Notes under the pieces: model-generated
Told to the model about the DNA's origin: nothing
Seen by the model: only the letters and a program-made list of their open reading frames with translations
Database searches by the model: none
Position numbers and translations under genes: made by a program
Assembly: GCA_023248535.1 (NCBI GenBank)
Contig: JAHFEJ010000004.1
Coordinates: 3,012 to 67,011, forward strand
Direction of reading: 5' to 3'
Source: Nitrospinales bacterium
GTDB taxonomy: Bacteria > Nitrospinota_A > UBA7883 > JACRGQ01
Length of the DNA stretch: 64,000 nucleotides
Shown: in pieces, positions 18,910 to 50,235 of the stretch
How positions within the stretch are numbered: position 1 is the stretch's first letter
Layout: each line of letters begins with the position of its first letter

Positions 18910-20928
18910 CTAGGTTAAATCAAGCGTTGCTTTTCGCACGCGGGTGGTTTGGAATTCCAGCGCCTCGCGGGTTTTAGCCAGCGAATATTCGAATTCCCGT
19001 TCCAGCCGGGGATCGTTTTGCGAGGGAGGGGCGCTTACCCTCAGGTCAATCTTGTGCCCGGCCAGTTCCGCGCGCGAGAGCATGTCCGCCATTTCCATCA
19101 AAGCGGGGTTGATGCCCATACGGGTGTGGCGGAACTCGCCCCACGAATCGTGAAACACCATATCGACCCGCCGGATTTCCCCCGGCGATTCCGCCAAACC
19201 AAAGTTGGGGATCACGAACACCCGGACGACGGCTCGCTCGCCCAGATAATCGCCGCGGGATGGTTCATAGTGGTAGCCGGCAAAATAGGCATGCAGCTTG
19301 TTGAGCAGGTATTCCACATCCTCCTGGCTATAGGGAATCCCTTTTTCAGAGCGAAAGTAGAATTTTATGCCCGGTTTCCAGATGGCGTTGATGATCATCC
19401 ACACCATCATATCCACCAACGATTTCAGACGGTTGAGGGGCTGAACGGTGGAAAGTCCGGCGGTCACTTCCGAGGGGCTGCCGGTATAAAGCGCCCACCC
19501 CCGCTCTCCCCGAACCGATTTCTCAAGAAACAGCGAAAGTTTTTGCGCATCGGCCGGAATGGCCCGGTGAAAAAAAGCTATTTTGCCCGGCACCTGCTCA
19601 AAGTGGGTGAAAAGCTTGCGTCCCAACACCGTCATGTCATCCCGCGTTATATAGGTCAGCTTGTCGACATGGGTCTTCTGATAATCCGAAAGGCGGATGT
19701 AGGCATCAATGAAATAACGGTATACCCTGCCAAGGGAATTTAACCGGCGCTGGGGATCATGGGCAAACAGCTGTTGCAGGTCATCCGCTTCGTCCCCCTG
19801 CCACCCCCAGCGCTTCATAATGGCCGCCAATACCTGTTCCTTGGGCGAAAGCATTTCGGTGCGGGTCCGCAACAAGCGGTCAATGTCGTCCGGCTCAATG
19901 CCGGTTTTAAGGATGAACGCCCACTTCACCAGCGTCACCTCCTTCATCATCCCGCGTTGCACATAAAAGGCGTTGGAACGCTCGAACATCATGATATAGG
20001 GATCAATCTCCTCCAGCGGGCCGGCCGGGTCGAGAACCCGGCGTTTCACCTCCTCGCACAACAATCCCGCCAACGGATTGAACAGGTAGCTTTCCAGCAG
20101 TCCCATTTTCAACACCGACTTGAAAGGGGATCCAAGCGCCTTGTTGATCTGCCACAGAGCCGCGCCAAAGAACTCCTCTTCCTCGGCGTAAATGAGGTGC
20201 CCCAGGTCAATATATTCTTCCAGTCCTTCCATACCTTGCCGCCGCAAAGCGGTGTAAAGCCCCGCTGCTTCCAGTTCCGGGTAGTCGGGTGGAATAATCC
20301 ACCAGAGCGGTTTTCGCCCCGCCACCCAAATGGCGGTGCGGTAAAATTCGTCTTTGAACAACTTCCCCAACGCGGAGCCAACATTTTCCCGGTCCGTCTC
20401 CCCAAAAAGATTCAGGCGAAACTCGCTGATATCCTGCAAAAAGAAGTGCGCCTCCACCCGGTGCCGGGAATAGAGCCATTGCTCAATGGCGGCAAGCTTC
20501 CGTTTGAGTGAAAAAAGATCGGTCTGGGAAAACTCTTCTTTATCGATGAACAGAATGTAATCGAAATCGGATTTGTGCGTCTGCGCCACCGTTCCCAGGC
20601 TGCCGATGAGGGCGAGCGAAATTATTTTTGGCTCCTGGGCCGGATGGGCCGCCGCGCCTGGAGCGATCTCCGCCACCGCCTTCAGATGAAGTTCACGCGG
20701 AATGAAATTATGGATACCGGCGGGCGCGTCCAATACGGGCTTCAACCCCTCGATGCCGCTATAATTTGCGTGCAGCAACAGTGGCACCGCCCCAAAGACG
20801 GTGTTTTCGGCCGGGCTGAAGAGCGACACCGCGCCATAAATGCGGGCCACGTTGAACATGTCAAAGCGGTAGCGCTGCCGCCTTACCTGTTCGGGAATGA
20901 GCGGCGGCGCCGCCAAGCCGCCACTCAT
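18910..20928 (-). CDS. cyaA: Class I adenylate cyclase (CyaA-type catalytic region, shortened C-terminus)
   Basis: Alignable by eye to E. coli CyaA: nucleotidyltransferase motif ALIGSLGTVAQTHKSDFDYILFID (cf. [20 protein letters not shown]), DEFYRTAIWVAGRKPLWWIIP (cf. [21 protein letters not shown]), EEFFGAALWQINKALGSPFKSVLKMGLLESY, DPYIMMFER. Confidence 0.8.
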   Translation of the reverse strand: MSGGLAAPPLIPEQVRRQRYRFDMFNVARIYGAVSLFSPAENTVFGAVPLLLHANYSGIEGLKPVLDAPAGIHNFIPRELHLKAVAEIAPGAAAHPAQEPKIISLALIGSLGTVAQTHKSDFDYILFIDKEEFSQTDLFSLKRKLAAIEQWLYSRHRVEAHFFLQDISEFRLNLFGETDRENVGSALGKLFKDEFYRTAIWVAGRKPLWWIIPPDYPELEAAGLYTALRRQGMEGLEEYIDLGHLIYAEEEEFFGAALWQINKALGSPFKSVLKMGLLESYLFNPLAGLLCEEVKRRVLDPAGPLEEIDPYIMMFERSNAFYVQRGMMKEVTLVKWAFILKTGIEPDDIDRLLRTRTEMLSPKEQVLAAIMKRWGWQGDEADDLQQLFAHDPQRRLNSLGRVYRYFIDAYIRLSDYQKTHVDKLTYITRDDMTVLGRKLFTHFEQVPGKIAFFHRAIPADAQKLSLFLEKSVRGERGWALYTGSPSEVTAGLSTVQPLNRLKSLVDMMVWMIINAIWKPGIKFYFRSEKGIPYSQEDVEYLLNKLHAYFAGYHYEPSRGDYLGERAVVRVFVIPNFGLAESPGEIRRVDMVFHDSWGEFRHTRMGINPALMEMADMLSRAELAGHKIDLRVSAPPSQNDPRLEREFEYSLAKTREALEFQTTRVRKATLDLT

Positions 20929-24679: not shown

Positions 24680-26524
24680 TTATTTAACCGGCTTTGCTAT
24701 CCCTGACACTCCCGGTTTTGCGTAGGGAAGGTATCCAGAAGCATACGCAGTGGTTGTAGGTGTAGCAACAACTACGCTGCCGCTTGCATTGACCGTCATG
24801 GTCGCCGCAACAAACCAACCATTCACGTTCGTACTATTAAACGTATAGGTCCACGGCCCGTAGCTGTTGCTGCCGAGCTGGAGCGACACCACGATATCCG
24901 CCTTGGCATCGCCATGCAGCGAATACGAATGCACCGCAAGGACGTAGAACCCCTGCGCCAGTTTAGAGGCGGTCATGTGTTCCGGCCCGTAGCCGTTCGT
25001 ATCGTCGATGTCGTAAAGGATGTCGCAACTTGTGTTGCTGTCCACGCTCACGCCGGCATAATTTGAGCCGGTATCGGTGCACGCATAGCCAGTCTGGCTA
25101 AAGCCGCTTGCATAATATATATGCCAGAGGGCCGTGGCGGGGGTAAGGGTAGCTGCTGTACTGGCTGGAGCCGTGCTGTAGAAGAAAAGGTGGGTATCCA
25201 TATCGGAGTTTGATGTGGATGTGCCATTGCTCCAGGTAAGCGTCGCCGTCATCGTGTTGGCCGTAACGGTGCCGCTGTTGCCCGACGAGGTGGTGGTGCT
25301 GGCGCCGGTGCTCGCCGTGAAGACGCCGCTCCCCTCGTTCATGGTGGGGTAGTTGCACTGCGCGCCCGTCATGGCGCTGACGCTGGCGAAGGATTGGGCC
25401 GTCTGCCCGGTAACGGTGACCGTCACGGTGCCATCCGCGGCGTAGACTACGGTGGTGTTGCCGTTTATGGTAATGCTTCCCGCCGTGGTATGTGCGCTGG
25501 CGAAGGTGTACCGGATCGGGGTATTCGTCACCACCGAGAACGTGCCGCCGTCGCAGAACGAGGCCGGCGTATAGGTGATGGAGGCGGTTCCGCTAATGGA
25601 AACATCCTGATAGGTGGTGGTGGTCGTGGTGGCGGTGGTGAAATTGGTGAACGAGGCGGTAACGCTGTACGCCACGCTGGAAGCCGTCCAGTCATCCTTG
25701 AAGGAGCCATTCATCTTGACGGTGTTGGTGGTTGTCGTATGGGCCGTTTCGACTATCAGGTTGGTGAACGTGAACGTTGAAGCGCTGGCGGTTCCCGACA
25801 TATAGTCGGTCAGGGTCATCGTCCCGTTCGCCGTATCGCTAAAGGTGTAACTGCCGGTGGCGGTGCCGGCCGTATAGGTGCTTGTCAACGTAATGGCCGA
25901 CGACATTTTTGAGACAAGGGTGGTATACGTCGTGCCGCTTACGTTGTAGGCCAACATGACGAGGGGAGTGGCGGAGGTGCCAAGGGTAATGCTGAAAGAA
26001 TTGGCGCTGCCGGAAACGGTGATCGTTCCATCCATCTGGACGCCCGCTTCGCGGCAGGTGTTAAACGTCATGCTTACCGCTGTCGCGCTGGTGGCGGAGA
26101 AAGTGGCCGTGCCTCCGTCGGTGCAGGCAACCGAACCGGAAGTCGCCGCGCGGGCGCCTGCCACGGCCTTTTGATGCTGGCCGATCTTGTTAAAAACCGA
26201 CAATGCCGCCATCTTGCCGGTAGCCTGCGAGAGGGTGTTTACTTTGGCATCGGACGATTGAAGCGGGACGGGCGATGCCGTCTTCGGCGCCGCAACCGTG
26301 CCCCCCATCGAGGTGACCGATATTTTGTCTATATTGGAAAAGGTGGTGCTGGCGCCCTGAGCCATCGATGCCGCCTGCACATTGGAAGAAGTTGCCTGTG
26401 TGCCTGCCGCCGCGGTGCTGATTGTGGTTGTTGTGGTTGCTGGCGCAGTAGTGCCGCCGCCACCGCCGCCGCCGCAAGCCGCGATAAACGATCCGATCAT
26501 AAGAGTAATGATCAGCTTCTTCAT
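24680..26524 (-). CDS. Large Thr/Ser/Gly/Ala-rich surface lipoprotein with C-terminal PPC-like (pre-peptidase C-terminal) beta-sandwich domain
   Basis: Lipoprotein signal MKKLIITLMIGSFIAAC (lipobox) then Gly-run; ~45% T/S/A/G low-complexity body; C-terminal region (DILYDIDDTNGYGPEH...GFYVLAVHSYSLHGDAKADIVVSL) resembles the PPC domain pattern. Confidence 0.6.
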   Translation of the reverse strand: MKKLIITLMIGSFIAACGGGGGGGTTAPATTTTTISTAAAGTQATSSNVQAASMAQGASTTFSNIDKISVTSMGGTVAAPKTASPVPLQSSDAKVNTLSQATGKMAALSVFNKIGQHQKAVAGARAATSGSVACTDGGTATFSATSATAVSMTFNTCREAGVQMDGTITVSGSANSFSITLGTSATPLVMLAYNVSGTTYTTLVSKMSSAITLTSTYTAGTATGSYTFSDTANGTMTLTDYMSGTASASTFTFTNLIVETAHTTTTNTVKMNGSFKDDWTASSVAYSVTASFTNFTTATTTTTTYQDVSISGTASITYTPASFCDGGTFSVVTNTPIRYTFASAHTTAGSITINGNTTVVYAADGTVTVTVTGQTAQSFASVSAMTGAQCNYPTMNEGSGVFTASTGASTTTSSGNSGTVTANTMTATLTWSNGTSTSNSDMDTHLFFYSTAPASTAATLTPATALWHIYYASGFSQTGYACTDTGSNYAGVSVDSNTSCDILYDIDDTNGYGPEHMTASKLAQGFYVLAVHSYSLHGDAKADIVVSLQLGSNSYGPWTYTFNSTNVNGWFVAATMTVNASGSVVVATPTTTAYASGYLPYAKPGVSGIAKPVK

Positions 26525-26704: not shown

Positions 26705-28177
26705 TTATTTTCCGCCGAGCCGTTCAAGCCAGGCGCGGGCGCGGGTTTCGGGATCGGAATGCCCGGTAACATCGGTGATGACGCTCACCATATCCGCGCC
26801 TGTATCCAAAACTTCGCCCGCACGTTCCAGCGTGATCCCCCCGATGGCGGCCAACGGATAATTGAACAACCGCTTCCAAAGCCGCACGGCATCAAGCCCC
26901 TGCGGGGCAAAGGCCATCGACTTTATCTTTGTGGGATAAATGGGGCCTAGCGCGATGTAAGAGGGAGACAGGCCATGTGCGACTGCCGCCTCGTGATAGC
27001 AGTGGGTGCTGACGCCAAGCCGCAGTCCCGCCGCGCAGATGGCGGCGATATCAGCGGCCAGAATATCCTCCTGCCCCAAATGCACCCCGTACGCGCCATG
27101 CTTTATGGCAAGCCGCCAAAAATCGTTTATAAAAAGCCGGATGCTTCTTTCGCGGCAAAACGCCACGCTTTTGATTATCTCGCTCTCCAACCCGGCCCCC
27201 TCCAGAGTTTTTACCCGGAGCTGCATGATCCTCACACCGCACTCCGCCAGCCGCTTCACCCACTCGAACGAATCGACGATCGGATAAAAATCCGGCCACG
27301 GTACCTCGATGGCGGGGAACGGCTGAGGCTCAACTGCTGGATGCCGCACGACCCACGGAAAATCCGCCGGTTCGCAGGGGAACGGCGGCGGCTCCTCCGC
27401 CGCCGCACGGTAGGCATGCTGCATGAATCCGCGCGCCATGACAATCGCGTCGCGCATTTCAAGGCCGTGGGCCATACCCGCCGCGATGGCGGTGGCCAGG
27501 TTGGCGATCATCCCTTTGTGTTCCGACACACGTTGCGGCTGCAACCTGTTTGTGGCTATCCAATAACGCTCAGTCCCGTCGGTGAACTAATCAAAGACAG
27601 CGGTTCCTCCCGGCAGTTGCCCCCCTTTCAGCAACACCGCCTTGGGCCCCATACCCAAAACCTCTTCGGCGGCCCGCACCATCTGATCGTGATCAACAAT
27701 AGGCCTGTTGAGCAACTGCTCGGCCTCGTCGATATCGGGGGTAAAAAGAGCAGTAACGGGAAATACGTTTTTCGTGATGAAATCGGCCGTTTCGGCATCA
27801 ATGTGGTTTTCCGAGAGCGAACCAAAAACGTCGCCATCCAGAATAACCCGCGCATCCGCCCCTTCCAGAGCGTGAAGCAACACCGCGAGGTGCCCCTCAT
27901 CGTAAACCGGCCCCACCTTAACAACCGGATGCCCTCCCGCTTCATCAAGCGCGGCGTCAAGATCATCGAGAAAATCGTCTGGATGGGTGAGCGACAGATG
28001 CACCGGTTCGCCGGGAATCATCACCATGGACGAGGTAATGGCGGGGCGCAGCGGCATGTCGAGCGCATCGAGCGTCCGCTCGTCGCATTCCAGGCTGCCG
28101 GGGCGGTCGATGCCATGCTCCCCGGCGGCGATGACGAAAGGGGCCTTGAGTCCGTCCTTTACGTTGGGGTGGCGCAC
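26705..28177 (-). pseudogene. thiDE: thiD-thiE fusion (HMP-P kinase + thiamine-phosphate synthase) interrupted by one in-frame TAG
   Basis: Upstream ORF (27587..28177) aligns to ThiD (VLLKGGQL cf. VLMKGGHL; TPDIDEAEQLL cf. TPNLPEAAALL) and stops at TAG 27587-27589. The same frame continues ...D*FTDGTERYW...SEHKGMIANLATAIAA (cf. E. coli DWLFTREGEQRF...NTHGTGCTLSAALAA) and then ThiE (FPAIEVPWPDFYPIVDSFEWVKRLAECGVRIMQLRVK, RLFINDFWRLAIKHGAYGVHLGQED). The ThiD N-terminal GGAG motif also looks degenerate. Confidence 0.65.
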
Positions 28178-28196
28178 GTCGCGTCCGGGTGCCGTA

Positions 28197-28988
28197 TTAT
28201 TTTTTCTCCTGGTGCCAAAACGGCGTGCCGACCACCGGGGTGGAGGGGGTGGCGAACTCGCGCTCCGGCATCATCCCGGCCTGATACGCCTTGCGCCCCG
28301 CATCTATCGCCATCGCGAAGGCGCGGGCCATCTCCACCGGATCGCGCGCCAGCGAAACGGCGGTGTTCAGCAACACGCCGTCGAACCCCATCTCCATCAC
28401 GGCCGCGGCGTGGCTCGGCTTTCCCAGCCCCGCGTCGATGATACAGGGGACATCCTTGAACCGGGCGCGGAATGTTCTTAACGAATGGGGGTTCGCCGGG
28501 CCGCGCCCGCTGCCGATGGGGGCCGCCCACGGCATCAGCACCTTGCAACCGGCGTCCAGCAGCCGTTCGGCGAAAACGAGGTCGTCCGTCATATAGGGGA
28601 ACACCTCGAAACCTTCTTTGATAAGTATCTTGGCCGCCTCCACCGTGCCGAATGGATCGGGCTGGAGGTTGTAGTCGTCGCCGATAACCTCCAGTTTTAT
28701 CCAATCGGTGTTGAACACTTCACGGGCCATGCGAGACACCGTCAGCGCATCCTTCACGCTGTAGCACCCGGCGGTGTTCGGCAGGATGTTGAGCTGCATC
28801 TCCTTCAACAGGTTCAGGAAGGCGTTGCTGTCCCATTTGCCGCTGCCGTAACGGCGCAGCGACACGGTGACCACTTCGGAGCCGGATGCCTCGATCGCCT
28901 GCCGCATGGTCTCCGGCGAGGGATACCGGGCCGTGCCGATAAGAAACCTGCTGAATAATTCTTTGCCGCCCAAACGCAACATCGTCAA
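28197..28988 (-). CDS. thiG: Thiazole synthase ThiG
   Basis: 263 aa; [22 protein letters not shown]... and C-terminal [28 protein letters not shown] are canonical ThiG. Confidence 0.9.
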
Positions 28989-29185
28989 CCTCCGGGAAAG
29001 GGCGTGACGATCTCGATATCGTCACCTTCGCCCAGTTTTGTTTTTTCGTAATCGCCGCGGGGGACGAACTCGCCGTTGAGGGCCACCGAGAAAAACTTCA
29101 CATCCCCTCCCAGCGATTTTACCAGTTGGGCGACGTTTTCAACCCTGTCAAATTCGCGGGCTTCGCCGTTGACAACCAGCTTCAT
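28985..29185 (-). CDS. thiS: Sulfur-carrier protein ThiS
   Basis: 66 aa [22 protein letters not shown]...[13 protein letters not shown] ending in GG; ATGA overlap with the thiO stop; the longer ORF call upstream is rejected. Confidence 0.8.
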
Positions 29186-30258
29186 GGATGCGCTTCGTAC
29201 AATTCCGCGAATGCCGCGTCCGGTTTTCCCCCTTCGATCAGGGATATTACCAATTCGGCGATTTTCGGCGAAAAGAGGTAGCCATGCCGGTAAAGTCCGT
29301 TCACGCGGATAAGCCGTCCGCCGTGGCGGATCCTCGGCAGGTTGTTTGGAAACGCCGGACGGCACTGCGTCATCGTTTCGATGACGCGCCCCTCGGAAAA
29401 TCCGCTGTGCATAGCGTAGGCGGCGGAAAGAAGCTCCAGCGTGCCGCGCACCGATATCGGGCTGAGGTCTTCATCGTCGATGGCGGTGGCGCCAAGGATG
29501 AACTGGCCGCCGGGGCGGGGCACCACATAGATGGGATAGCGCGGGTGCATCATCCGCACCGGCCGGTTCAGCCTGACCTCCGGCGCGTGCACCCACACCA
29601 GTTCGCCGCGCACGCCGCGCAGGCCGGGAAGCTGCGTTTTGCCTTTCAGCCCGCGGGTATCAAGCACCATGTCAAAGTCGAACGCGCTTATGGCGGTATC
29701 AATGCGGCCATCGTCCGCCGAGCGGACGTGTACGCCCAAATTCAGCGTGGCGTATTTTTGCAGCCATTCGCCCAGCACCACCAGCAGCCTGCGTGAATCG
29801 ATCTGCCCTTCCAGCGGCAGGTAAAGGCCATCCATAAACGCGTCATCGATATCAGGCTCCAGTTCGCGGAGTTCGGCCCCTTCCACGCGCCGCATTACCA
29901 GATTGCCGGTATGTTCGTCCATCTTGCGTACCAGCCGCATCAATTCATTGCGGTCTTGGGGGTGGGAGATGACCAGACTGCCGGCCGCCTGGCAATAGAC
30001 ATCCCCCCCGATCTGGGGCAGGAGTTGTTGCCACATGGCGAGCGAAGGATTGCCGAGGCGCGCCACCACCGGCTCGGCGTATTCCAGCTCACAGTAGGGA
30101 GCGATCATGCCGGCTGCCGCGTAACTGGTGGTGCCGGTCGCCGCCAGATCGCCGTCATCGAACAGCGTTACGCGCCACCCCTTTTTAGCCAGCAGGTAGC
30201 CGGTCAGCCGTCCGATGATGCCCGCTCCCGCGATGCCGCACGTATTTCCCTTAGTCAT
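29182..30258 (-). CDS. thiO: Glycine oxidase ThiO (FAD-dependent oxidoreductase)
   Basis: N-terminal dinucleotide fold CGIAGAGIIGRLTGYLLAKKGWRVTLFD; DAO-family length (358 aa); position within the thiOSG operon. Confidence 0.8.
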   Translation of the reverse strand: MTKGNTCGIAGAGIIGRLTGYLLAKKGWRVTLFDDGDLAATGTTSYAAAGMIAPYCELEYAEPVVARLGNPSLAMWQQLLPQIGGDVYCQAAGSLVISHPQDRNELMRLVRKMDEHTGNLVMRRVEGAELRELEPDIDDAFMDGLYLPLEGQIDSRRLLVVLGEWLQKYATLNLGVHVRSADDGRIDTAISAFDFDMVLDTRGLKGKTQLPGLRGVRGELVWVHAPEVRLNRPVRMMHPRYPIYVVPRPGGQFILGATAIDDEDLSPISVRGTLELLSAAYAMHSGFSEGRVIETMTQCRPAFPNNLPRIRHGGRLIRVNGLYRHGYLFSPKIAELVISLIEGGKPDAAFAELYEAHP

Positions 30259-30300
30259 CGTATTCCGCTTTCCCTGATCGTGCCGACAAACGAAAACCTG

Positions 30301-31497
30301 TTACGCCAGACGCTCGCCGAAGGCTTTCAAGCGGCGCATCCCCTCTTCGATCCGCTCGGTGGCCATCGCGTAGCTGAAGCGCAAATAGCCTTCCGCGCCG
30401 AACGCAACGCCCGGCACCGGGCCGACCCCCGCGTGGTCGATGAGGACGTTCGCCAATTGCGCCGAATCGCGGATGACCTCCCCGTCGAATTTCTTGCCGA
30501 GCCAGCCGTTGAAATTGGGGAACGCGTAGAACGCTCCTTTCGGGACGACGCACGAAATGCCGTCCATCGAGTTGAGCGCGCCGACGATGATGTCGCGCCG
30601 CTTTTTGAATTCCGACGCGCGCGTGGCGAAAAACGCGGTATCTTTCAGCGCTTCCGCCGCCGCTAGCATCAGCGGCGTTACGGGGTTGCTGGTGGACTGG
30701 CTCTGCAGTTTCACCATCGCCTTGATGATCGGCTCCGGCCCCAGCGCGTGGCCAAGCCGCCAACCGGTCATTGAAAAGCTCTTGGACATGCCGTTCACCA
30801 GAATGGTGCGGTCCTTCACGTCCGCCCCCAGTTGCACGGGGGAGAGGTGTTTGTGGCCGTCATAAACGATGGCGTCGTATATCTCGTCCGAAATGAGGTA
30901 GATGTCGTCGTTCACGGCGATATCGGCGATCTTGCGGATCGTTTCATTGCTGTAAACCGCGCCGGTCGGGTTACACGGCGAGTTGAGGATGATCGCTTTG
31001 GTGGCGGAGGTGATCTTCGATTTCAGCTCGTCCATATCGGGATTGAACCCGTTTTCGGGGCGGCAGTTCACAAAAACCGGCTTGGCCCCCGCCAGCAGCA
31101 CCTGGCTGGGATAGGTGACCCAGTACGGGGAGAAGATGATGACTTCATCCCACTCGTCGAAGAGCACCTGGGAGATGTTGTAGAGCGAGTGCTTGGCCCC
31201 CATCGAGACGATGCACTGGCTCTTGGCGTAATCGACGCCGAGCTGGCGGCTGGTGAATTCGACGATGGCGGTCTTTATCTGGTCGTTGCCGGCGACGGGG
31301 GCGTACTTGTTCTTTCCCTCGCGGATCGCCTTGATGGCGGCCTCCTTGGCCGGTTCGGGCACGTCGAAATCGGGCTCGCCCGCGGCGAAGCTGATGATAT
31401 CCTTCCCCTTCGCGTTCAGCGCCGTTATGCGCCCCGCCACCTCCATCGTGGCCGATTCTTCGAACGAATCCATCCTCCGCGCAAGTTTCATGTTCAT
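30301..31497 (-). CDS. Class I/II PLP-dependent aminotransferase (aspartate/aromatic aminotransferase-like)
   Basis: 398 aa with AAGEPDFDVP, NSPCNPTG and the SKSFSMTGWRLG lysine motif of fold-type I aminotransferases. Confidence 0.88.
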   Translation of the reverse strand: MNMKLARRMDSFEESATMEVAGRITALNAKGKDIISFAAGEPDFDVPEPAKEAAIKAIREGKNKYAPVAGNDQIKTAIVEFTSRQLGVDYAKSQCIVSMGAKHSLYNISQVLFDEWDEVIIFSPYWVTYPSQVLLAGAKPVFVNCRPENGFNPDMDELKSKITSATKAIILNSPCNPTGAVYSNETIRKIADIAVNDDIYLISDEIYDAIVYDGHKHLSPVQLGADVKDRTILVNGMSKSFSMTGWRLGHALGPEPIIKAMVKLQSQSTSNPVTPLMLAAAEALKDTAFFATRASEFKKRRDIIVGALNSMDGISCVVPKGAFYAFPNFNGWLGKKFDGEVIRDSAQLANVLIDHAGVGPVPGVAFGAEGYLRFSYAMATERIEEGMRRLKAFGERLA

Positions 31498-31985
31498 TTC
31501 CTTCCCTTGGCGTGCAGCTTGCGCCGCAACGCATTGGCGACGGCGGGCGGCACAAGGGCCGTGACATCGCCCCCCAGCCCCGCCACCTCTTTGATGATCT
31601 TCGAGCTAATGAACGTGTACTCCTCGCTCGGCATCATAAATACCGTTTCCACCTTCTTGTTTATTTTCCGGTTCATCTGGCTTAATTGCAATTCATACTC
31701 AAAATCGGAAATGGCGCGCAGGCCGCGCACCACCGTGTAAACGCCGCGCGACATGCAAAAATCGACCAACAGATTGTCGAACGCTTCCACCGCCACGCGG
31801 CCATTATGCCCTGCGGTGGCTTTGCGGATGAGGTTCACCCGCTCTTTCACGGCAAAGAGGGGCTTTTTGGCCGGATTCACCGCCACGGCGATGATAATGG
31901 AGTCGAACACCGAGAGCGAACGGGTGACGAGGTCGAGGTGGCCATTGGTGACCGGGTCGAACGTCCCCGGATATACCGCTTTCAT
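31494..31985 (-). CDS. coaD: Phosphopantetheine adenylyltransferase
   Basis: MKAVYPGTFDPVTNGHLDLVTRS (T/HxGH nucleotidyltransferase motif), 163 aa; ATGA overlap with the downstream gene. Confidence 0.92.
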   Translation of the reverse strand: MKAVYPGTFDPVTNGHLDLVTRSLSVFDSIIIAVAVNPAKKPLFAVKERVNLIRKATAGHNGRVAVEAFDNLLVDFCMSRGVYTVVRGLRAISDFEYELQLSQMNRKINKKVETVFMMPSEEYTFISSKIIKEVAGLGGDVTALVPPAVANALRRKLHAKGRK

Positions 31986-32011
31986 CCAGATTCCTCCGTG
32001 TTAAGCGGCAG

Positions 32012-32986
32012 TCAGCGGGAAGCCGCTTGTTTCTTCAATTGTACCGCACGGCGGGCGGCATCGGCCAGCCCCGTGGCGGTAAACCCGCAGGCCTCCAGAA
32101 GCTCTTCCGGCGCGCCGGATGATATGTAATCGTCCTGAATGCCCACGCGGATGACCGGCACCGGATTATTCTCGGCCACCAGTTCAGCCACCGCGCTCCC
32201 CAGTCCGCCGATGATGCTGTGCTCTTCGGCGGCGACCAACGCGCCGCTTTCGGCGGCCGCCTGCAGGACAAGATCGCGGTCAATCGGCTTGATGGAAGCC
32301 ATATTGACCACCCCCGCCGAAATCCCTTCTTTCTCAAGAAGCGCGGCGGCTTCCAGCGCAATGCTCGTCATCAACCCGCAGGCGATAAAGGTGACATCCG
32401 CCCCCTTTTTCAATTGATCCCCTTTGCCCGGGGTGAACGTTTTGGAATCGTTAAACACCACCGGGAACTTGTCGCGCGTGAGACGGATGTAGACCGGTCC
32501 GACGTATGCGGCCGCCCAGCGGACCGCCGCGGCGGTTTCATGGGCGTCGGCCGGCATAATGACGGTCATGCCGGGGATGGCGCGCATCAGGGCGATATCC
32601 TCTCCCGCCTGGTGCGAAGGGCCGTCTGGCCCGACGGTGATGCCGCCGTGCGTGGCGATAATCTTGACGTTCTGGTGCGGGTAGCCGACCGCCTGCCGAA
32701 CCTGTTCCCACGCCCGCCCGGAGGCGAAAATGGCGAACGTGGAGGCGAACGGTATCTTGCCACCGGCGGCAAGCCCCGCGGCGGTGCCAATCATATCCTG
32801 TTCGGCGACGCCCATATTGAAGAAACGTTCCGGGAACGCCTTGGCGAACGTCGAAGTACGGGTGCTGCCTGAAAGATCGGCGTCCAGCACCACGATGTCC
32901 TTGTTGGTTTTTCCCAGTTCCGCAACGGTTTTGCCGTAGTAATCGCGTAACGCAAGCATCTCGGCCATATTATGCCTTCTCCCCAA
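32012..32986 (-). CDS. Transketolase, C-terminal subunit (pyrimidine-binding + C-terminal domains)
   Basis: 324 aa; the transketolase C-terminal half, split from the N-terminal subunit gene, which it overlaps by 17 nt. Confidence 0.88.
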   Translation of the reverse strand: MGRRHNMAEMLALRDYYGKTVAELGKTNKDIVVLDADLSGSTRTSTFAKAFPERFFNMGVAEQDMIGTAAGLAAGGKIPFASTFAIFASGRAWEQVRQAVGYPHQNVKIIATHGGITVGPDGPSHQAGEDIALMRAIPGMTVIMPADAHETAAAVRWAAAYVGPVYIRLTRDKFPVVFNDSKTFTPGKGDQLKKGADVTFIACGLMTSIALEAAALLEKEGISAGVVNMASIKPIDRDLVLQAAAESGALVAAEEHSIIGGLGSAVAELVAENNPVPVIRVGIQDDYISSGAPEELLEACGFTATGLADAARRAVQLKKQAASR

Positions 32987-33800
32987 GCTCGGCCAGCGCC
33001 TTGTTCAGTTCATCCGTGCTGGGAGCTGTGCCGTGCCACTTGGCCAGCCGCTCCATAAACGACACTCCTTTGCCCTTCACCGTGCGCGCCCAGATCAGCG
33101 ACGGCTTATCCGTCACTTTTTTCGCGTTGTCGATGGCGGCGAAAATCTGCCCGAAATCATGGCCGTCGATCTGCTGCACATGCCAGCCGAACGCTTCCCA
33201 TTTCTTCCCTATCGGCTCAATGCCCATCACATCGCTCACGAATCCGTCGATTTGCAGTTCGTTGTTATCCAAAAACGCGATGAGGTTGCCCAGCTTGAAG
33301 TGGGCGGCGCTCATGGCCGCTTCCCAAATCTGCCCCTCCTGCGTTTCACCGTCCCCCATCATGGCGTAGACAAAGGTGTCCCGCCCATCGAGGCGGTTCG
33401 CCAACGCAAGCCCGTTGGCTTGCGAAAGCCCCTGACCGAGCGAGCCGGTGGTGATCTCAACGCCGGGTGTGGAGGGGGCGTACGGGTGGCCGCTCAAAAT
33501 GCTTTCATATTGCCGCAGGGTTTTGAGGTGCTCCCGGCCGAAGTAACCGCATTCGGCAAGCACGGCGTAAAGCGCCGGGGCGCCGTGCCCCTTGGAGAGG
33601 ACGAATTTATCGCGCCGATCCGTTTTTTTGCGGTCTGGACCGTGATCCATCGCGCCGCAATAGAGGGCCACCAGCATATCGATGGCCGAAAGGGAACCGC
33701 CCGGGTGCCCGCTGCCCGCAGCATGGATCATGGTAAGGATATCAACGCGCATCCGGCGCGCGATTTCCTTAAGCTCAACAACGTCTTTTGTCCGTTTCAC
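32970..33800 (-). CDS. Transketolase, N-terminal subunit (TPP-binding domain)
   Basis: 276 aa with GSGHPGGSLSAIDMLVALY and GDGETQEGQIWEA TPP-binding blocks. Confidence 0.88.
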   Translation of the reverse strand: MKRTKDVVELKEIARRMRVDILTMIHAAGSGHPGGSLSAIDMLVALYCGAMDHGPDRKKTDRRDKFVLSKGHGAPALYAVLAECGYFGREHLKTLRQYESILSGHPYAPSTPGVEITTGSLGQGLSQANGLALANRLDGRDTFVYAMMGDGETQEGQIWEAAMSAAHFKLGNLIAFLDNNELQIDGFVSDVMGIEPIGKKWEAFGWHVQQIDGHDFGQIFAAIDNAKKVTDKPSLIWARTVKGKGVSFMERLAKWHGTAPSTDELNKALAELGEKA

Positions 33801-37554: not shown

Positions 37555-38542
37555 CCTCTTCCAGTTTTTTCACAATGCGGATGATGCTCTGCTGGGCCTT
37601 TTCCACGTCGGACAGTTTCACCGGTCCCATCGCCGCGAGGTCTTCCTTCAGCATTTCGCCGGCACGCTTGGACATGTTGTGGAGTATCTTCTCCTTGAGC
37701 TGCTCCGACGCCGTCTTGAGGCCGAGGATGAGGTCGTCGCGCGAGACCTCCTTGAGAATGACCTGCATCCCCTTGTCATCCACCGACAGGAGGTCCTCGA
37801 ATACAAACATGAGGTTGCGGATGCTTTCGGCAAGCTCCGGATTGAACGATTCGATTTCAGTCAGAATGCCGACCTCCATGTTATGGTCGAGATTGTTGAC
37901 GATTTCGGCCACGGCTTCCACGCCTCCCAACCGGCTCCCTTCCATCGCGCCGGCGCTCTGGAATTCGGTCGCCAACGCGCGGTCCAGATCGGCGACCACC
38001 GAGGGATTTACCCGCTCCAGCGTGGCGATGCGGAAAACGATTTCCGAGCGGAAACGGTCGGGCAGGTTTTTAAGGATTTCCCCCGCCTGCGCGGAATCAA
38101 GATGGGCCAGTACTATGGCGGCCGTTTGCGGGTACTCGTTCCGCAGGAATGCGGCGACGGTTTTCGGGTCAAGATGGCGGATCGCCTCGAGGCCGCCCCC
38201 CAGCTCTTCGGTTTGACCGGGCGCGGCGATCTTGGAAAGTATTTCGGCCACCTTCCCCGCATCCATGGTTTTTTCAAGCATTTTCTTCAGATACTCGCGG
38301 CCGCCGGAAAGAATGCCCCCTTCGCCCCCTTCAAGGGCCTCGAAGAATTCGCGCGCCACGGTATCAATCTGTTCGTTGCTGATGTTCTCCATGAACGACA
38401 TGTAGTTACCCACCGCCTGTATCTCTTTTTCATTCATTTTGGCGAGGACTTTTGAGGCGATAGTCTCCCCCATCGAAATCATCAAAACAGCCACCTTTTC
38501 AGGGCCGCTTAATATGTTTGAACCCGGTTTACCACGTGCCAT
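37511..38542 (-). CDS. fliG: Flagellar motor switch protein FliG
   Basis: 343 aa with the conserved FliG middle and C-terminal domains (LSGPEKVAVLMISMGE..., torque helix region). Confidence 0.95.
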   Translation of the reverse strand: MARGKPGSNILSGPEKVAVLMISMGETIASKVLAKMNEKEIQAVGNYMSFMENISNEQIDTVAREFFEALEGGEGGILSGGREYLKKMLEKTMDAGKVAEILSKIAAPGQTEELGGGLEAIRHLDPKTVAAFLRNEYPQTAAIVLAHLDSAQAGEILKNLPDRFRSEIVFRIATLERVNPSVVADLDRALATEFQSAGAMEGSRLGGVEAVAEIVNNLDHNMEVGILTEIESFNPELAESIRNLMFVFEDLLSVDDKGMQVILKEVSRDDLILGLKTASEQLKEKILHNMSKRAGEMLKEDLAAMGPVKLSDVEKAQQSIIRIVKKLEEDGKVVLAGGGEELV

Positions 38543-48057: not shown

Positions 48058-50235
48058 TCAGCGTTTTTCGGCGCGGCGGGCATCCATGATACGTTCGACG
48101 CTGCGGATGCCATCGAGGCCGCGCACCGTTTCCAATATCCGTTGCAGGTGATTGAGGTCTTCTATCTCGACCGTGAGATCCAGATCCCCCTCTATCGCGC
48201 TGGTGGCGGTGACGGTGGCGGATGCGATATTCGCTTCGCACCCGGCGATGGCGGCGGAGACCCGCGCCAAAATGCCGGGACGGTTGAGGCTCTTAATGAG
48301 GATGCGCACCGGGCGGAGCTGCTTTTTCGCGGCGGTCTCCCACCGGGCTTCGAGCAGCCGTTCGGGGTCGGCCTCCAGGGATTTAAGGGAGGGGCAACTT
48401 TTGGCGTGGATCACCAAGCCGTGCCCGGCCGAGATGTACCCCAAGATCGGGTCGCCCGGCACGGGGTTGCAGCAGCCGGCGAAGCGGATCAGCATGTCGT
48501 GGATATCGCCCACGCGCACCCCCAGGTTTTCGGTCACGCTGGCGATGTAGTTCTTGCGGCGGTTTTCGACCTCGCGCCATTTTTCGGCCGGGAGCAGCTT
48601 GTGCAGCACCGTGTAGGCCGATAGCGACGAGATGCCGATACGGTCGAGCATCACCTCGGCGTTTTTGAAACCGAGGGCCACGGCGGCGGCCTCCATCGTT
48701 TCTTTCGTCCAAAACGCCTTCAGGTCCAGCCCGTGGCGGCGCAGCTCGTTCTCCACGATCTCGTTCCCCAGCCGCAGCGATTCCACCTTCTGCGCGTTGC
48801 GCAGATACCCCTTTATCTTGGCGCGGCCGTGGGAGGTGACGGCGATCTTGAGCCAATCGCGCACCGGGTGCTGCTCGTTCGAGGTGAGCACCTCCACCAC
48901 GTCGCCGTTGCGCAGCTGGTAGTCGGGCGGCACCGGCTTGCCGTTCACCAGCGCGCCGAGGAAGTGGTTCCCCAACTGGGTGTGGATGCCGTAGGCGAAA
49001 TCGAGCGGGGTGGCCCCGGCGGGGAGCGCTTTCACCTCCTGCTTCGGGGTGAAGACGTAGACCTCGTTCGGAAAGAGGTCCATCTTGAGCGTGTCGATGA
49101 ACTCCTCGGAATTGTCGACGCTGAGGCCCAGGTCCAGCAGCCGCTTCACCCAGATGAAATTCTCGTCGTCCTTGGTGGGGGGGCGCTTCCCCTCTTTATA
49201 GCGGAAGTGCGCCGCCACGCCGTCTTCGCTGTTGCGGTGCATCTGGCTGGAGCGTATCTGGAATTCCACCCGCCGCCCGGTGTGCGTGAGCACGGTGGTG
49301 TGTATGCTCTGGTACATGTTCTCTTTCGGCAGCGCGATATAGTCCTTGAACTTGCCGGGGATCGGCTTCCACTTCGTGTGGACAAGCCCCAGCACCTTGT
49401 AGCAGTCGAGCAGGCTGTTGGTGATGATCCGCACGCCGATGAGATCGTATATCTGGTCGAAATCGAGGTTCTGTTCGGTCATCTTGCGGTAGATGCCGTA
49501 AAAATGCTTGAAGCGCCACGACACCTGCCCCATGATCTTTTCCATCAGCATCAGGTCGCGCGTTTGGGCGCAGAGGCTGGTGATGAATTTATCCAGCTCC
49601 TCCTGCCGCTCTTTCATCAGCCCCTCGATCCGCTTGTACTCGAACGGCATGAGGTACTTGAAGGCTATGTTCTCCAGCTCCACCTTGATCCAGTGCAGGC
49701 CCAGGCGGTTGGCCAGCGGGGCGTAGATATCCATCGTCTCCTGCGAGATGAATTTCTGTTTCTGCGGGGGGAGGAAATCGAGCGTCCGCATGTTATGGAG
49801 GCGGTCGGCCAGCTTGATGAGCACGACGCGGAGGTCGTTGCTCATGGCCAGGATCATCTTGCGGACGTTTTCGGCCTGCGATTCCTCTTTGCTGGCGAAG
49901 GTGAGGCGGCTGAGCTTGGTAAGCCCCTCCACCAGCAGCAGCACCTCCCCGCCGAAGATCGAGCGTATCTGGGCGGGATCGGCTTCGGTATCCTCCAGCG
50001 TGTCGTGCATCAGGGCGGCGGCGATGGCGGCGGGATCCATCTTCATTTTGGTGAGGATGAACGCCACCTGCATCGGGTGGCTCATATACGGCTCGCCGGA
50101 AAGGCGCACCTGCCCCTTGTGCGCCGCCGAGGCGAACGCGTAGGCCCCCAGTATCTTGTCCACCTCGGCGTCCGGCTGATATTCGCGGACGGCTTCGATG
50201 ATCTCCTCCAGGTGTATCGCCCGCAGCGCCTGCAT
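48058..50235 (-). CDS. rel: Bifunctional (p)ppGpp synthetase/hydrolase, RelA/SpoT family
   Basis: 725 aa; HD hydrolase domain (HPMQVAFILTKMKMDPAAIAAALMHDTLEDT), RelA/SpoT synthetase domain, TGS and C-terminal ACT. Confidence 0.95.
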   Translation of the reverse strand: MQALRAIHLEEIIEAVREYQPDAEVDKILGAYAFASAAHKGQVRLSGEPYMSHPMQVAFILTKMKMDPAAIAAALMHDTLEDTEADPAQIRSIFGGEVLLLVEGLTKLSRLTFASKEESQAENVRKMILAMSNDLRVVLIKLADRLHNMRTLDFLPPQKQKFISQETMDIYAPLANRLGLHWIKVELENIAFKYLMPFEYKRIEGLMKERQEELDKFITSLCAQTRDLMLMEKIMGQVSWRFKHFYGIYRKMTEQNLDFDQIYDLIGVRIITNSLLDCYKVLGLVHTKWKPIPGKFKDYIALPKENMYQSIHTTVLTHTGRRVEFQIRSSQMHRNSEDGVAAHFRYKEGKRPPTKDDENFIWVKRLLDLGLSVDNSEEFIDTLKMDLFPNEVYVFTPKQEVKALPAGATPLDFAYGIHTQLGNHFLGALVNGKPVPPDYQLRNGDVVEVLTSNEQHPVRDWLKIAVTSHGRAKIKGYLRNAQKVESLRLGNEIVENELRRHGLDLKAFWTKETMEAAAVALGFKNAEVMLDRIGISSLSAYTVLHKLLPAEKWREVENRRKNYIASVTENLGVRVGDIHDMLIRFAGCCNPVPGDPILGYISAGHGLVIHAKSCPSLKSLEADPERLLEARWETAAKKQLRPVRILIKSLNRPGILARVSAAIAGCEANIASATVTATSAIEGDLDLTVEIEDLNHLQRILETVRGLDGIRSVERIMDARRAEKR

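Follow-up and report, generated by a model that had tools for sequence, protein, structure and literature searches.

A private in-frame amber codon in a thiD-like/thiE fusion gene of a Nitrospinales bacterium

The thiD-like/thiE reading frame and its surroundings

The window analysed here is a stretch of 64,000 nt from a Nitrospinales bacterium. On its minus strand lies a complete thiD-like/thiE reading frame (thiDE) of 490 codons (26705..28177), with a GTG start at 28177 and a TAA stop at 26705-26707. Translated whole (28198-26705), the frame is open except for a single internal stop at codon 197 (27587-27589, minus strand), where CTA on the plus strand reads as TAG on the coding strand and replaces a conserved Tyr. 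An earlier note on this DNA had described an in-frame TAG that interrupts one ThiD-ThiE frame, and both the translation and the domain analysis bear this out: with the stop masked, Pfam returns one unbroken Phos_pyr_kin match across the stop (residues 34-259, 98 bits), and then TMP-TENI at residues 303-469 (157 bits). Since the ThiD match runs across it, the TAG lies inside a domain and not between genes.

Upstream of thiDE, in the same cluster and on the same strand, are thiO (DAO), thiS and thiG (28197..30258), and the order thiO-thiS-thiG-thiDE is kept in relatives. The GTG start of thiDE is found 19 nt past the thiG stop (28177-28199, minus strand), and its Shine-Dalgarno match is very weak (-3.2 kcal/mol); translation of thiDE may be coupled to that of thiG. 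Close orthologues keep both the GTG start and the N-terminus MRHPNVKDG. Neither a TPP nor an HMP-PP (thiS-motif) riboswitch is detected at thiO-thiS-thiG-thiDE (28197-32000, minus strand) in an Rfam search extended to E<=1.

The thi cluster follows, after a gap of 42 nt, an aminotransferase gene, a CTP_transf_like gene and a split transketolase pair, with all of which it may be co-transcribed. The transketolase pair (32012-33800, minus strand), upstream of the thiamine cluster, consists of an N-terminal gene of 276 aa and a C-terminal gene of 318 aa, and encodes a thiamine-diphosphate-dependent enzyme. Directly downstream of thiDE is the gene for a predicted lipoprotein of 614 aa (24680-26524, minus strand), which is rich in Thr, Ala, Gly and Ser and has no Pfam family. 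In two relatives at 82% (L050 and L051), a 614-aa protein with no Pfam family occupies the same position downstream of thiDE.

The ThiE and ThiD-like domains

The C-terminal ThiE domain (TMP-TENI, PF02581; residues 303-469, 26771..27271, minus strand) appears intact, in keeping with the earlier description of a full ThiE domain past the stop. Its scores exceed the cut-offs of both PF02581 (157 bits vs. 27) and TIGR00693 (149.5 vs. 145.1). Residues 309-486 align to the solved B. subtilis ThiE (1g4t/2tps) with E = 3e-26, and the stretches conserved between the two, namely QLR-K, ND, HLGQED, GVS-H, LGPIYPT and IGGI, are what we take to be the ThiE active-site motifs. An intact ThiE product is not encoded in the window record itself, in which amber codon 197 lies upstream of the domain and no in-frame start past it has a Shine-Dalgarno match better than -5 kcal/mol.

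The N-terminal ThiD-like domain (Phos_pyr_kin, PF08543; residues 34-259, 27401..28078, minus strand) belongs to the family at the level of the fold, with a score of 98 bits; its score against the equivalog model TIGR00097 is 82 bits, below the cut-off of 205. All five ThiD motifs (glycine-rich N-terminal, DPV, TPNxxE, KGGH and GTGC) are altered across the clade: GSDxxGGAG is replaced by GEHGIDRPGS, DPV by DGD or DPE, TPNxxE by TPDxxE, KGGH by KGGQ, and GTGC by GMIA or GKVA. These replacements are common to the window, to a nearly identical twin contig (see below) and to six homologues of 55-83% identity (P0001-P0006). The canonical motifs are present in about 108 of the 120 fusions listed among the homologues. 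Degenerate ThiD motifs are also seen in P0007, P0011, P0012, P0015 and P0052, and the clade with the motif-less ThiD-like domain also takes in L002 and L050-L052.

In relatives of 82-84% identity, dN/dS is 0.07-0.17 for the ThiD-like part and 0.13-0.22 for the ThiE part; by this measure, purifying selection on the ThiD-like part is at least as strong as on the ThiE part. The N-terminal GGAG motif had previously been called degraded and offered as a sign of a pseudogene. The motif is indeed altered, but it is so throughout the clade, and purifying selection acts on the domain (dN/dS about 0.1-0.15); on both counts a decaying pseudogene is rejected. The reading frame itself contains one stop and no frameshift, its product is otherwise the same as that of the twin, and dN/dS among the orthologues is 0.07-0.27.

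The meanings of the catalytic motifs are known from the ribokinase superfamily, in which GXGD/C has the role of an anion hole. Because of this role, the altered motifs suggest that kinase chemistry has been lost. Judged from its sequence, the N-terminal domain is probably not an HMP kinase, and probably serves as a conserved, non-catalytic 'pseudokinase' module on ThiE. This point is independent of the TAG stop. No relevant account of an inactive ThiD domain in fusion with ThiE turned up in literature searches. If the ThiD-like domain is not a kinase, the pathway would need a separate thiD, and the automatic naming of such proteins as 'bifunctional HMP kinase/ThiE' is probably wrong in this Nitrospinales-like clade. 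Marine Nitrospina MAGs are reported to have a separate tenA-thiD cluster (PMC12236431), and a separate, real ThiD would fit with this arrangement.

The origin of the stop codon

A protein search returns 1437 homologues. Each of the four closest (81-83% identity) is one protein of 489-493 aa and spans 99-100% of the query, all 120 homologues listed are fused single ORFs, and ThiD homology extends 60 residues beyond the stop. At the stop column, these 120 homologues have Tyr (82), Phe (30), His (2) or another residue (6), i.e. Tyr or Phe in 112 of them, and the preceding Asp is present in 119. The position had been proposed to be conserved, and it is, with an almost invariant Asp before a column of mostly Tyr and Phe. 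E. coli ThiD has Trp at this column, the residue that the earlier note aligned there.

The nucleotide sequences of five orthologous loci were set side by side, namely: the ENA twin contig; MAG nzgw267; GCA_040961205; GCA_040960095; and one Logan contig. Their codons at the stop site are TAT, TAT, CAT, CAT and TAT, respectively. A comparison with orthologues had been suggested earlier as a check, and its outcome is a sense codon at the site in every orthologue compared. The best match in a scan of genome contigs is the Nitrospinales MAG nzgw267 (84%), and thiDE is a single ORF of 486-493 aa in all close orthologues. An exact DNA pattern for the region around the site, with N at the variable base, has 0 matches in JGI metagenome contigs, and a protein-guided scan of JGI metagenomes yields only distant relatives (<=39% over the full length), which are uninformative about the site.

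The twin, an independent ENA metagenome contig (ERZ27280116 k141_5537301, 43,856 nt), overlaps positions 1-37926 of the window, and differs from it over these 37,926 nt by 2 mismatches and 0 gaps (99.995% identity). The first mismatch is the stop base. The twin has TAT (Tyr) and one 490-aa gene is called there, while the deposited NCBI contig of 71,002 nt, from which the window comes, is annotated with products of 196 aa and 268 aa. The second and only other difference (27530, minus strand) is synonymous, with CGT in the window and CGG in the twin as well as in L002, an outgroup. The two differing bases are 57 nt apart, and each is a G/T transversion when read on the coding strand. In outgroups, the codon at the stop site is TAT or CAT, and that at 27530 is CGG, CTG or CGC. 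As read from these alignments, both window alleles (TAG and CGT) are derived, and the TAG arose from a Tyr codon by T-to-G substitution of its third base, a change that is private to the window assembly. The probability of two independent sites falling so close together is about 0.003, and thus the two differences share one origin.

The twin contig ends at window position 37926, in the flagellar fliG/fliH region, and the source contig of the window continues beyond this point; a contig of 50-200 kb with the RelA protein of the window (48058-50235) also exists. Over 33.8 kb, the window and the Logan contigs of run SRR14366785 agree at every base. Those compared leave 27438-28055 uncovered, and the points at which they break off are not repeated in the window; this gap, which could stem from low coverage or from variation, is weak evidence for an artefact.

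We lean towards a consensus or sequencing artefact, in which the TAG is confined to the deposited consensus. A false TAG could have come, for example, from a handful of reads that were damaged, erroneous or duplicated, at a place of thin coverage; the cells would then produce the full 490-aa protein. The artefact is favoured because a single faulty molecule or read would carry its errors close together, as the two differences are (57 nt apart, with no other in 38 kb), and we infer that the pair of changes is an artefact and not a real haplotype. Furthermore, dN/dS in relatives (0.07-0.27) shows purifying selection on the gene, so that a nonsense allele would be disfavoured in vivo and would be neutral as an error. 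Against an artefact, coverage was presumably reasonable, given a contig of 71 kb, and short reads at such coverage would seldom give a consensus with two wrong bases; in addition, 38 kb without indels or further errors indicates an assembly that is otherwise very clean.

The chief alternative, to which we give appreciably less credence, is a real and very recent nonsense allele, Tyr197 to amber, in some or all cells of a nearly clonal population. It would leave a 196-aa ThiD-like fragment with little or no ThiE, i.e. a young thiE null (thiamine auxotrophy) that has had no time for further decay. In its favour, the TAG is present in the deposited NCBI contig, with the 196-aa and 268-aa products annotated accordingly. 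In a De Bruijn assembly, SNPs separated by less than k fall into a single bubble, so that a linked pair at such a distance would come out as one haplotype; for this reason a real minor haplotype would look identical to an artefact. Oxidised guanine classically causes two types of mutation, G to T and T to G, and one in-vivo event of such damage could yield both changes. Environmental bacteria commonly lose the ability to make vitamin B1, and salvage genes, which would be consistent with such a loss here, have been reported in Nitrospina MAGs (PMC12236431).

The possible in-frame starts past the stop are TTG at codon 212, GTG at codon 217, and ATG at codons 223, 235, 241, 247 and 252. The claim in the earlier note that the downstream ThiE part has only non-ATG (TTG) starts is therefore incorrect, but its doubt about independent translation of ThiE is well founded, since no post-stop start has a ribosome-binding site. 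The best anti-Shine-Dalgarno pairing of these starts is -1.7 to -4.4 kcal/mol, as compared to about -5 to -10 kcal/mol for most of the neighbouring genes. The 268-aa downstream product in the NCBI source record begins at ATG codon 223 (26705..27511, minus strand), which has no convincing Shine-Dalgarno sequence (duplex -3.5 kcal/mol). Efficient reinitiation for ThiE alone at TTG 27544, GTG 27529 or ATG 27511 was considered and rejected, as none has a Shine-Dalgarno match. Because the post-stop starts pair weakly, the TAG, if real, should be close to a ThiE null, and the lack of a start with a ribosome-binding site is in agreement with a nonsense allele that is a true null; low-level reinitiation of ThiE from such an allele is possible.

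Several observations argue against a nonsense allele. The gene is strongly constrained in relatives, and the remainder of the thi cluster is intact, with no difference from the twin. Errors would be expected to cluster as these two differences do, the only ones in 38 kb, but independent real mutations rarely would. Finally, the allele is found in no other public contig. That the TAG haplotype is real and marks a fresh thiE-null (thiamine-auxotroph) lineage, segregating in an almost clonal Nitrospinales-like population, is a tentative proposal that we consider rather unlikely. If it were so, the window would hold a snapshot of the first step in the loss of the vitamin B1 pathway, before further decay. 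With TAT in the twin and sense codons in the orthologues, a nonsense mutation and a sequencing error are the two explanations from the earlier note that find support, while the decaying pseudogene proposed along with them does not.

Programmed recoding of the TAG (by readthrough, a suppressor tRNA or pyrrolysine), which would yield the full-length ThiD-like/ThiE protein, had been put forward as well, and we judge it highly improbable. The sole point in its favour is that the frame runs on unshifted through a conserved domain. Against it, the codon is TAT in the 99.995% identical contig and TAT or CAT in the orthologues, and TAG is a normal stop, a usage that the earlier note had left to be checked: it terminates 8 of the 40 genes called on the twin contig. 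The stretch of 116 nt that begins at the stop shows no greater folding propensity than shuffled sequence does (z = 0.29), and Rfam finds no RNA element in the whole window at gathering score or in 26.5-34.5 kb at E<=1. Readthrough thus finds no support in the conservation of the stop, in terminator usage, where TAG is common, or in downstream structure. ARAGORN, run over the window, gives a doubtful tRNA-Pro as its sole match and detects no suppressor or Pyl tRNA. The annotated genes of the window include none of the pyl type, the neighbours being flagellar, secretion, topoisomerase, sulfur-assimilation and signalling genes. The tRNA-Pro(TGG) call (88 nt, 20016-20103, minus strand) lies within a 672-aa adenylate-cyclase ORF (18910-20928, minus strand) and is probably a false positive; Rfam at gathering score finds no tRNA in the whole window.

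The least credible explanation, that a short thiD-like gene and a thiE gene are genuinely separate and share a frame by chance, agrees with the two products listed in the NCBI source annotation but is rejected, since one Pfam ThiD match spans the stop, no spacer is present, no ribosome-binding site is found downstream, and all 120 listed homologues are fused, including the closest at 81-84% identity, with ThiD homology 60 residues past the stop. Orthologues in the form of separate genes with an intergenic spacer, which the earlier note had said would overturn its reading, are not what is observed; the orthologues are single ORFs.

For annotation, the locus is best treated as one thiD-like/thiE gene with a doubtful base, rather than as a pair of genes, a site of recoding or a decaying pseudogene. 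For metabolic reconstructions, a ThiE deficiency of the organism should not be scored from the TAG alone.

Comparison with known systems

Three known systems bear comparison with the locus. In the long ThiE of the Vibrio type (NF008933 / PRK12290, 438 aa), there is apparently also a non-ThiE N-terminal extension that is continuous with the ThiE domain. Residues 202-478 of the window protein align to positions 113-403 of this model with 213 bits; this score is far under the cut-off of 516 and the N-terminal 200 residues are unmatched, so that the protein is not a member.

The ThiD-ThiE fusions of many Proteobacteria and other bacteria (HMP/HMP-P kinase plus thiamine-phosphate synthase) are closer in architecture, with the same order of PF08543 followed by PF02581, a length of about 490 aa and a location in a thi cluster. 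The window clade differs from them in that all five ThiD motifs are changed, and the window record alone differs in having an amber codon in frame.

The stop itself is an ordinary private nonsense base or a consensus error, and is nothing new. In MAGs, 'pseudogenes' that are due to a point nonsense change or to a consensus error likewise show one base that disables a conserved gene with no other damage, together with a near-identical, independent assembly that lacks it. The window record does not differ from these in kind; what is unusual is how close to the stop, at 57 nt, the only further difference in 38 kb is found.
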